Shown piece by piece: positions 15,301 through 61,350 of a DNA stretch of 64,000 bases (positions are counted from its first letter, which is position 1; each line of letters opens with the position of its first letter). This stretch comes from Harriotta raleighana. Its lineage: Eukaryota. The stretch lies in NCBI GenBank assembly GCA_050575255.1, contig JBNZDD010013731.1, positions 14,302,225 to 14,366,224 of the forward strand. Reading direction: 5' to 3'. A model generated the notes under the pieces. That model was not told the DNA's origin and searched no databases. It saw only the letters and a list, made by a program, of their open reading frames with translations. The translations under genes were made by a program, and so were the position numbers.

Positions 15301-18300
15301 GTAGCTGGGAATCTAAGTTGGAAATGGTGGGGAGAGGAAGCTCAAAGCATGACTCAAAAGGTAGATTTGAAGGCAGATTTTAATAATAATAAAATAATAA
15401 TAATCCTTATGTTCAATATAGCACTTTTCCCATCTTCTAAACATCTCAAATCACTTTATGGAATATATTGTAAATGAATTGACTGTACATTTGTGGGAAA
15501 AACTTGAAGGTGAAGAAGGACGGGCAAGATGAAGGTAGAGTTCCAAAGAGTCCAAGCAAACTTTTTGAATGCTCAATCATCAATGATTAGGTAGACCAGG
15601 GCATGTAAAGATGTTCACTGATCAGAGAGGATAGCCAGAGCAGTAGAGTTGCAAAAGGTCTGGGAGGTAGGATGGATTGACCTCATGAAGGCATTTAAAA
15701 TGAGAATAAGGATCTTGAATTTAATCTACTGGGGCTTGGGGGTGATAGACTTATCTTTATAATAATAATCCTTGTATTTGATATGGTGCTTATTATTTTG
15801 TTGAGACATCTCAAAGTTTTTTAATATGACATTTTTTTATATGACAGCAATGAAGTCCATTGTCCATGCACTGGGAAACCATTGAACAGCATGAGATTAA
15901 TCGTGAAGTCCTGTAGCTGAGTGGTTCGAGCACTCGCCTTACAAGCGTGAGACCTGGGCATACTCCACACGCCTAATAATAATCCATCCAAAAAACAAAA
16001 TAACAAATTGGTCATTTCAATCCACGACTGTTTGCGGGACACTGCTGTGCGCAATTGGCTGCCGCATTTCGCCCACAAATATAGAGTCAATTCACTTTAT
16101 AGTATATTCTGTGAAGCGCTTTGAGACATCTAGAACATGCGAAAAATTCTATACCAACTGCAAGGATTATAGGAATCAAACCTGAATCCTCTTGTTTTTA
16201 AGGCAAGCAGCTAACCAGTACACCCCAAGACTCCATTTATTTGAGATAGGCTGTCATTCCTAAAGAAAGAACTTACTTTTTTGCAGAGCCTACAACATTT
16301 GAAATAACTTTCTAATAATTACTTATACTCTGCTTACAAAACTCTGCCTACCATGCAATAACTGTTTTTGTAGGCAAACCTGGCAGCCATTTTACACGGA
16401 GAAAAGTCCCCCAAACATCCATGAGGTGATCTATCTGGAACGTAAATTCAGCTATTTCAATTTGAGTAAAATGGCTAAATTTCATTATATGTGTTGCAAC
16501 ACGTTTCCTTAGGAATTCGTAGGCAAAGTGATTATGAATATATTGTGACAAGTAAACTGAAGATCTATAATACTGTATCATTAACATAAACCTTCTGTTC
16601 CAGCCTAACTATCTTTCAATTATGCCCATCATTCCAACATATTTAAAACACTTGCCACATGGCTTGCACACACTTGAGTGTTATTAAAACAATAGTATTT
16701 ATTCTGATGAAGGGTCATGGATCCAAAACGTTGACTCACTTTACTCCATAGATGCTGCCTGTCCTGCTGAGTGTTTCCAGTGATTTCTGTTTTTGTTGCA
16801 GTATTTTGAGTTATTGTTAGTGTTATGTTACCATGTTTAAAATGTCTGGTAGTGAGTTGAAAGAATAATTCAATCATTTGGTGTTCTGTAGACAGCTTAC
16901 TGTAACATTTACTTAAATTCCTAGCTTGTGTCATCTACTCTTCTATATCTGATGCTAACGTACTAGGTAACTGATGATGTTTAATCTAATATCAAACCTT
17001 GTTTTTCAGACCTTCTGTGTGATATCCTCAAGATTTAGTGCCCAGTATTTGTCTCGTTTCAACGTCAGCAAGTCCCTCTTTTTGTTTGCTCACACTCATC
17101 CATTAAGGAAAATTACCGTTCGTGCAATGACGCATCAATATCCTTTAGTCAAAACGGTTTGTTCTCCTTCCTTCTGCCAAAGTTAGTTTGTAATTGATAA
17201 GGTACATAACAGAAAACCATCAAACTCTATTAAGAACTATTGTTTTCTAGTGTACTGCTTTGTGGCTGAGAAACAATCCAGTAATATTAATGTGTTGAAA
17301 GCTGTGCCATTGCAAAATACAAACCTCTCTTTCAAATATTTAAGTTCTCTTCAATAGTAAATATAATTGATTCCATCTCCCAGCGAGTACTCAGATAGCC
17401 AAGGTTAGACCAAGCAGTATGTGGAAAATGGAGGGAGTTGAATAGGGGTGAAGGATGAAAGATGGAAATAGAGGGTTTTGATGAAGTACAACAAAAGGTA
17501 TTGTAGCATTATGACCTCTAGTACCACAATAATCCTGTTAACTAAACCCTCATTGGTGTCACGATGTTTCTAGGAATATCATTTTAAAACAATCAAGCAG
17601 TTACACTAGAAAATTAGATAAAGGTAATAATTGCTAGCATATAAATTACTCTATGTCATTGAGTTGGTTTTGTTTAAATGCAGCATGTGCCCAATACTGT
17701 ATAATATAAACACTTATAACATGAAGTTTGGAATCCGCATTTTCCTTAACATGTCTTTACAATTTTCAATTTTGTGATCATTGGAACAATCTTTGTGAAT
17801 ATGTTACTACTGGCGTTAAATAAAAATTTTGTTTTGATAGAGTAAGTATACTTGATATGTATTGCATTGTACATTGCATTTGTATACAGTATTAAATATA
17901 CTATATATAGTATATTCATCTATTTTAAAAGAAGAAAATATTTTACCAGTCATGTATTTGATAACATTTCTTCTGCTTTGAATCATTAGTTCAAGCTTCT
18001 GCTTCGTTCTTTCCTTTAATCCCACTACGCCCCACGAGCCCCTCCACAGCAAGGAAACTGCCCTGAACAAGGTCACAAATGATATTTTGACTATTTGCTC
18101 TCTCTGCCTCCTCGACGTATCTGCCGCCATCGATACCGTGGACCATTCGATCCTCCTCCACCACCTCTCCTCCCACCTCAACCTTCAATGTTCTAACCTT
18201 GACTGGTTGAGGTCTTACCTTTCACACCATCTCCACTTTGTGTCTGCCAACGGCTTTTCCTCCAGCCCCCGCAGTCTCGTGCAGTGTTCCTCAGGCTCTG

Positions 18301-61350: not shown

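Follow-up and report, generated by a model that had tools for sequence, protein, structure and literature searches.

Which kind of channel is encoded by the sodium-channel-like gene in a 64,000-nucleotide (nt) stretch of the genome of the chimaera Harriotta raleighana (contig JBNZDD010013731.1; this whole stretch is called the window here), and where does its coding sequence begin? A preliminary description of the window had proposed an apparently intact Nav2-type channel, distinct from the vertebrate Nav1 genes SCN1A-SCN11A and coding from 17010 onwards. We find that the gene is an unbroken Nav2 with an Asp-Glu-Glu-Ala (DEEA) selectivity filter, and that it extends beyond the window. Taken as a whole, the reading we consider probable is that of a channel predicted to be Ca2+-permeable and weakly inactivating, whose likely first exon lies antisense to exon 3 of the molybdenum-cofactor gene MOCS2.

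The DNA examined comprised the window together with 120 kb downstream and 40 kb upstream on the same contig. Exons were placed by tblastn of database proteins followed by inspection of splice sites, and positions called "extended" carry the window numbering on into the downstream contig DNA. Published sources are cited for the excerpts that concern the points at hand. The gene model is given below, with DI to DIV for the four domains and S1 to S6 for their transmembrane segments; exon 2 was delimited by tblastn and splice mapping, and exons 3 to 25 by splice mapping.

4166..4495, plus strand: likely Nav2 exon 1, 110 codons, ATG at 4166, GT donor at 4496, phase 0, AG acceptor near 4144
17010..17137, plus strand: Nav2 exon 2, N-terminal domain, followed by an AT-AC intron
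17761..17841, plus strand: Nav2 exon 3, DI S1
21811..21939, plus strand: Nav2 exon 4, DI S2-S3
22738..22823, plus strand: Nav2 exon 5, DI S4, three positive charges instead of four
26629..26832, plus strand: Nav2 exon 6, DI S5
27575..27635, plus strand: Nav2 exon 7, DI turret
35236..35380, plus strand: Nav2 exon 8, DI pore, filter Asp at 35354
36928..37116, plus strand: Nav2 exon 9, DI S6
39385..39502, plus strand: Nav2 exon 10, short I-II linker
41359..41606, plus strand: Nav2 exon 11, linker and DII S1
44237..44422, plus strand: Nav2 exon 12, DII S2-S4
48420..48587, plus strand: Nav2 exon 13, DII S4-S5
50136..50318, plus strand: Nav2 exon 14, DII pore, filter Glu at 50223
51110..51350, plus strand: Nav2 exon 15, DII S6 and II-III linker
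53547..53725, plus strand: Nav2 exon 16, II-III linker
54364..54723, plus strand: Nav2 exon 17, linker and DIII S1
61177..61350, plus strand: Nav2 exon 18, DIII S2-S3, the last inside the window
extended 64870-64986 and 73837-74109, plus strand: Nav2 exons 19 and 20
extended 76808-76861, plus strand: Nav2 exon 21, DIII filter Glu at 76817
extended 78142-78279, 80346-80459 and 86554-86824, plus strand: Nav2 exons 22, 23 and 24
extended 92525-93531, plus strand: Nav2 exon 25, DIV filter Ala at 92845, stop

Exons 2 to 25, 24 in number, run from 17010 to extended 93531 and add up to 4854 nt; they join in phase and contain no stop but the final one. With exon 1 the full model has 25 exons and 1727 amino acids (aa). 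It contains four domains of six transmembrane segments, charged S4 segments and an intact frame. Among the 24 exons, 22 of the 23 introns are GT-AG. The other, at 17138-17760 after exon 2, is an AT-AC intron with a U12-type donor and a branch-like signal, and may be the reason why most database models lose their 5' exons; SCNA genes also have an AT-AC intron ahead of DI S1.

The three motifs from which the channel had been recognised lie on the plus strand where the preliminary description had them (TFCV at 17010, DI pore at 35336-35368, DII pore at 50205-50258). Its exons are indeed in phase and free of stops, but exact splice mapping gives 17 of them, not 18, within 17010..61350, and 18 coding exons are reached in the window only by adding the upstream exon at 4166-4495, outside that span. 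Its claim of a functional gene gains from the seven exons past the window: none is disabled, the frame stays intact to the single terminal stop, and they carry the DIII Glu, the III-IV linker, the DIV Ala, an IQ-like tail and the stop.

The filter places the gene. The Nav2 class is defined by a filter reading D-E-E-A/G/S/T (PMC6259924). The model reads DEEA, with no Lys in DII or DIII; the DIII residue, which lay out of sight of the first description, is Glu (extended 76817), as in 34/34 vertebrate-clade database proteins examined. Identity to Callorhinchus models is 88-90% over 1490-1529 aligned residues, and falls to 78.5% for Heterodontus, 65% for Latimeria, 62% for Acipenser and 50% for lamprey, then to 43% for an amphioxus DEEA channel, 43% for BSC1 and 41% for bird SCN5A.

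Trees agree with this assignment. FastTree was run on 38 of 47 aligned rows over 1039 columns (9 were left out as redundant, partial or mis-assembled) and IQ-TREE on 21 rows (17 more left out), rooted on cnidarian DEEA channels. In the IQ-TREE result the model is sister to Callorhinchus (100/100) inside a clade of lampreys and gnathostomes (100/100), a placement on which FastTree agrees, and the Nav1 clade excludes it (100/100). Forcing the vertebrate Nav2 clade together with two vertebrate Nav1 rows was rejected by the approximately unbiased (AU) test (p-AU 3.97e-5), which, with the DIII Glu, bears out the earlier separation from SCN1A-SCN11A. A phylogeny of Nav1, Nav2 and Cav proteins had been proposed with that separation; in its Nav1 and Nav2 part the gene falls outside Nav1, and no Cav outgroup was among the rows. 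The genome holds one copy of Nav2 that we could find, beside four other Nav loci with a Nav1-type DII pore (4/4), an Ile-Phe-Met (IFM) motif (4/4) and a DIII Lys (3/4, the fourth pore exon being unrecovered).

Several positions vary within the vertebrate clade. In cartilaginous fishes Ala takes the place of the Gly that normally follows the DIV filter residue (extended 92845-92850 here), and the residue after the DI filter Asp is Tyr or Phe; this second position is Arg in bichirs and His in sturgeons. In the II-III linker (53547-54420) a short block is kept across vertebrate Nav2, including Heterodontus, Polyodon and Acipenser, and could be a putative binding site.

What would such a channel do? 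Expressed invertebrate DEEA channels are permeable to Ca2+ and show no Na+ selectivity (PMC6259924, PMC10983803), and together with the filter they predict the same of the Harriotta channel. By analogy with them we expect, with high confidence, that depolarisation would open a pore passing Ca2+ and probably Na+. The III-IV linker reads TLL where invertebrates typically have an xFL motif. Its central Phe is absent in 32/34 vertebrate models and kept in 77/77 invertebrate DEEA and 11/11 Asp-Glu-Lys-Ala (DEKA) proteins, and in honeybee CaV4 a change from MFL to AAA abolishes inactivation (PMC10983803). Since Leu stands where Nav1 and invertebrate Nav2 have Phe, fast inactivation is probably weak or absent. 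The first voltage sensor is altered as well: DI S4 has three charges in all 19 of the 34 vertebrate models that contain the segment, and four (81), five (5) or two (2) in 88 other proteins; the S4 segments of DII to DIV keep their charges in the model. We found no prior report of the loss of the inactivation Phe and of one DI gating charge in the vertebrate clade, nor of currents from vertebrate Nav2, in the literature searched. Judged from its sequence, the channel is likely voltage-gated, Ca2+-permeable and weakly inactivating.

Three points weigh against parts of this picture. At the base of the tree the vertebrate clade forms an open fork with the invertebrate DEEA channels, on a long stem (0.63) and with no Cav rows. 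Two vertebrate models, P0014 and P0017, do show the linker Phe, after non-homologous residues that look mis-predicted. Finally, the linker Leu may still support slow inactivation.

Nav2 in a chimaera was already known. The published account has single Nav2 genes in ghostshark, coelacanth and lampreys and, in the section concerned, none in ray-finned fish or tetrapods (PMC6259924, citing Zakon et al. 2017; PMC12021243 likewise cites this study on vertebrate Nav2), in line with the preliminary description, which had called the clade known in vertebrates. The database matches differ from this account on ray-finned fish. Our protein search for orthologues (7985 candidates scored, 120 matches listed of 6772) gave Nav2 orthologues in Polypterus, Erpetoichthys, Polyodon, Acipenser and Huso, most of which carry Nav1-type names, and FastTree confirms four of these five genera as Nav2. 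The matches listed include no orthologue from gar, teleosts, lungfish or amphibians. Nav2 in bichirs and sturgeons would move its loss in ray-finned fishes to after the split from these lineages; at the level of literature listings we found no prior report of Nav2 in bichirs, sturgeons or paddlefish. Paddlefish and sturgeons have two Nav2 models each on contigs that differ in length (P0012/P0013, P0134/P0135, P0039/P0136), and the gene may be duplicated there.

The vertebrates with Nav2 among the matches listed all belong to what we take to be electroreceptive groups, and a lead on expression comes from one of them. In Siberian sturgeon a contig annotated NACP60E (TRINITY_DN91069_c5_g1) is among 1418 genes enriched in both lateral-line organs (PMC7720607, supplement 2), with a log2 fold change (log2FC) over epithelium of 3.57 in ampullary organs and 2.63 in neuromasts. 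It ranks above all five CACNA1D rows (2.29-2.61 in ampullary organs), and no other entry in that table, searched by term, bears the name of a voltage-gated sodium-channel subunit (PMC7720607). We propose tentatively, and at a little under an even chance, that the channel would provide a lasting inward current to the sensory cells of the lateral line, most of all to ampullary electroreceptors. No prior link of Nav2 to electroreceptors was found in the literature listings.

A serious contender, which we also hold to be possible but short of even, keeps the same gene architecture and has the channel work outside sensory organs (neurons, gonad, epithelia), the match to electroreceptive groups reflecting slow genome evolution. 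Lungfish, salamanders and caecilians are electroreceptive, and none of them has a Nav2 among the 120 matches listed, which favours this alternative and weighs against a sensory role. So do the paddlefish lateral-line list, which has no scn or 60E entry when searched by term (PMC5429088, supplement), and the main text on catshark ampullae, whose relevant part makes no mention of a sodium channel (PMC11979771). The sturgeon signal comes from a single dataset in which the annotation NACP60E is the only tie of the contig to Nav2, and the contig sits in the "common" rather than the ampullary-specific list. Against a role outside sensory organs stand its place as the sole named voltage-gated sodium-channel subunit in the sturgeon table and its higher level in ampullary organs than in neuromasts (log2FC 0.94, false discovery rate 0.027; PMC7720607).

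The remaining question is where the protein begins. The preliminary description had started the gene at 17010; coding likely begins upstream, in exon 1 at 4166-4495. This exon wholly contains exon 3 of MOCS2, which runs on the opposite strand, codon against codon:

4338..4484, minus strand: MOCS2 exon 3, MOCS2A C-terminus Gly-Gly-stop (stop 4358-4360); match to human MOCS2A 5mpo, E 1.8e-14
5619..5740, minus strand: MOCS2 exon 2, inside Nav2 intron 1; ThiS match, E 0.023
9117..9128, minus strand: MOCS2 exon 1 candidate of 4 codons, inside Nav2 intron 1, put forward as the sole pattern candidate
3133..3258, minus strand: MOCS2 exon 4, likely MOCS2B start codon at 3253

The assignment to MOCS2 follows from a ThiS/MoaD-type subunit ending in Gly-Gly and followed by MoaE exons on the same strand, the later ones 11-12 kb upstream of the window; exon 3 is the only ThiS match in a genome search. 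Nav2 and MOCS2 are thus interleaved head to head, and the donor of Nav2 exon 1 is the reverse complement of part of the MOCS2 acceptor pyrimidine tract. A CpG-rich stretch at about 9000-10000 lies in Nav2 intron 1 around the candidate MOCS2 exon 1.

The case for this exon starts from lampreys. The first 118 residues of lamprey Nav2 model P0041 match the plus-strand frame 4166-4495 (BLASTP E 1e-12) and end in register with the exon 2 junction; the splice from 4495 to 17010 was deduced from lamprey models P0041 and P0128. The two RefSeq isoforms of lamprey are alike except for a single Gln right at that junction; we infer a tandem acceptor observed in RNA, which commonly leaves such a trace. A scan of 1.84 billion representatives with exon 1 (HMMER) gave three matches, P0140, P0142 and P0141. 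P0142 has a full-length cluster mate, P0143; P0141 is an acidic repeat protein of 2925 aa that aligned in 25 stretches, and it was discarded as a compositional match. In a word-indexed protein search with exon 1 none of 92 candidates gave a score, and the ESM Atlas gave no usable match. Identity over exon 1 is 66% for P0143 and 56% for P0140, which share the start Met as well as the register in which they read on into the intron. The 110-codon antisense frame is conserved in four records, with a common start codon and donor register.

Could the frame be a mere shadow of MOCS2A, in an ordinary Nav2 whose true start lies elsewhere (for example at the CpG-rich MOCS2 promoter, used in the opposite direction) and whose N-terminus is short? 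In-register antisense frames are often open, with an estimated chance of 0.088 over exon 1; the CpG-rich stretch lies between exon 1 and exon 2; and the exon is absent from the jawed-fish database models examined. Yet half of the frame lies in the MOCS2 intron, where all three minus-strand frames are closed across the 57 codons concerned and where conservation is equally high: 37/57 codons in P0143 outside the MOCS2 exon versus 29/42 opposite MOCS2A codons, and 31/56 versus 26/42 in P0140. Conservation of the codons outside the MOCS2 exon reaches z=6.1 against lamprey (1/2000 shuffles) and z=16.8 against P0140 (0/2000), and only 164/3430 flank windows of 57 codons are free of stops. Together with the shared start codon and donor register of the four records and the junction isoforms of lamprey, these data make a shadow frame improbable.

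It is still less probable that exon 1, although genuine, forms part of an independent small antisense gene or is just one among several first exons, and that the lamprey annotation fused it to Nav2. Intron 1 would span 12.5 kb, and the exon 1 peptide is unlike Nav N-termini. Against a profile built from 22 N-termini of invertebrate channels and Nav1, the four exon 1 peptides score 0 bits or less, with an hhalign probability of 0.3%, which speaks against ancestral Nav motifs surviving in the 5' half of the exon. When each row was left out in turn, that profile recovered 18/18 bilaterian rows, the amphioxus DEEA channel included, at 51-90 bits; the 4 cnidarian rows reached no more than 2-14 bits, so strongly diverged termini would escape this test. 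The exon 1 peptide is also predicted, at low confidence, to be mostly unstructured (AlphaFold: predicted local distance difference test 58.7, predicted template modelling score 0.20, two short helices). Against a separate gene stand a phase-0 donor that fits the phase-0 acceptor of exon 2 and scores 7.0, within the 4.9-12.6 of 22 internal donors, and a length of 110 residues where most bilaterian Nav carry 74-142 ahead of the same junction. A search of the 57 kb that precede exon 2 also turned up no ancestral-type first exon (best E 4.3).

Other observations bear against exon 1 as the Nav2 N-terminus. Its profile matches only two channel models of 143 proteins, both from Lethenteron reissneri, and no jawed-fish model; the join to exon 2 in jawed fishes would thus be drawn from lamprey models rather than from a jawed-fish transcript. 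P0140 and P0143 are short unnamed records that read through the donor, and their link to Nav2 is by deduction. Within the MOCS2 exon, MOCS2A itself imposes part of the conservation, and a wobble-site test, which has no neutral yardstick, is raised for P0143 (15/19) and P0140 (13/20) but not for lamprey (5/16). For dual coding the result is accordingly an antisense frame conserved under its own constraint outside the MOCS2 exon, with a mixed wobble result inside it.

We nevertheless hold with considerable confidence that exon 1 joins exon 2 by splicing and took the place of the ancestral N-terminal exon before the split of lampreys and jawed fishes. Each of the four peptides is compatible with an in-register antisense of the MOCS2A end, Gly-Gly-stop (z 8.9-12.5; 0/5000 shuffles each), so the overlap itself is likely present in lamprey as well. 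The simplest reading would be that early vertebrates swapped the first exon for one recruited from the MOCS2 antisense strand: Nav2 would have come to lie head to head with MOCS2, and an open antisense frame, together with the donor that part of the MOCS2 pyrimidine tract already offered in reverse complement, would then have been recruited as a new first exon. We lean moderately towards this route. No report of a Nav2-MOCS2 overlap was found in the literature, judged by titles and the openings of abstracts; the original vertebrate Nav2 paper may bear on it.

A divergent Nav1 (SCNA) paralogue or decaying pseudogene, suggested only by database names such as "type 9 subunit alpha-like", is refuted by the DEEA filter, 1617 stop-free codons, the AU rejection and the four separate Nav1 loci.

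Other features of the region were noted in passing. A follistatin (FST) exon lies on the plus strand at contig position 14408778, 13 kb past the Nav2 stop, giving the order MOCS2(-), Nav2(+), FST(+); human MOCS2 and FST adjoin each other. The MOCS2B-register frame of MOCS2 exon 3 (4338-4484, minus strand) is open over most of its length; in human, MOCS2B starts within exon 3. Triple coding, with MOCS2B also starting there, was not supported: exon 3 lacks an ATG in the MOCS2B register, and exon 4 holds the likely start. Repeat-derived stretches at 9834-9914, 11016-11090 and 21119-21190 match the N-terminus of Callorhinchus model P0004, a database model that therefore opens with repeat sequence. 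The introns contain many fragments resembling long interspersed nuclear elements, including regions 32631-33620 and 37758-38255, with an endonuclease match (E 3e-4) at 32631-33617; the region 46788-48059 resembles a transposase remnant, and a Pfam search gave no match there. Two-copy tandem repeats at 49524-49734 (106 bp) and 50955-51063 (53 bp), also intronic, hold the three N bases of the window and are likely assembly joins.

In its widest form, which we regard as doubtful, vertebrate Nav2 would be a remodelled channel for Ca2+ entry that hardly inactivates and serves the ancestral cells of the lateral line and the electric sense. Its N-terminus would have lain antisense to the essential MOCS2A exon since before the split of lampreys and jawed fishes, and the gene would be kept only where ampullary-type electroreception was kept. 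If true, electroreceptors would have an overlooked second inward-current channel beside Cav1.3. The overlap by itself would be a rare and very old instance of a vertebrate exon that codes on either strand and has given an ancient channel a new N-terminus, and it would link changes in a molybdenum-cofactor gene with those in a channel. The 25-exon model opens the way to direct tests by expression, and gene editing is possible in sturgeons (PMC8867083). Cloning from databases would give a truncated channel, since the jawed-fish models examined lack exon 1. New here, as far as the literature searched goes, are the antisense dual-coded first exon common with lamprey, the loss of the Phe and of the gating charge, the early ray-finned orthologues and the lateral-line lead.

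Among known channels, the Nav2 of elephant shark, coelacanth and lamprey are orthologues of the Harriotta gene, which shares the DEEA filter and is 88-90% identical to Callorhinchus. The published accounts of these genes cited here (PMC6259924, PMC12021243) name neither the overlap with MOCS2 nor a replaced N-terminus or altered gating motifs, though the original study (Zakon et al. 2017) may. Insect NaCP60E/DSC1, BSC1 and honeybee CaV4 have the DEEA filter and Nav2-type pore motifs in common with it. They differ in an MFL linker and four DI S4 charges, where the Harriotta gene has TLL, three charges and a non-homologous first exon; relative to insects, Ala replaces Gly after the DIV filter residue in cartilaginous fishes, and the lamprey filter is DEEG. 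Vertebrate Nav1 (SCN1A-SCN11A) resembles the Harriotta gene in its four-domain plan, an intron before the TF motif and an IQ-like tail, whereas the Harriotta gene has Glu for Lys in DIII, no IFM and a separate clade, at 41% identity to bird SCN5A. For the overlap, the closest parallel is LRRC8E / ENSG00000214248, likewise a coding exon of vertebrates that is read from either strand and has persisted for hundreds of millions of years (PMC4316641). There the antisense frame is a stand-alone uncharacterised open reading frame, traced to bony vertebrates (PMC4316641); in Harriotta the frame probably forms exon 1 of an old channel of 1727 aa, reaching back to lampreys and set codon to codon against its partner.

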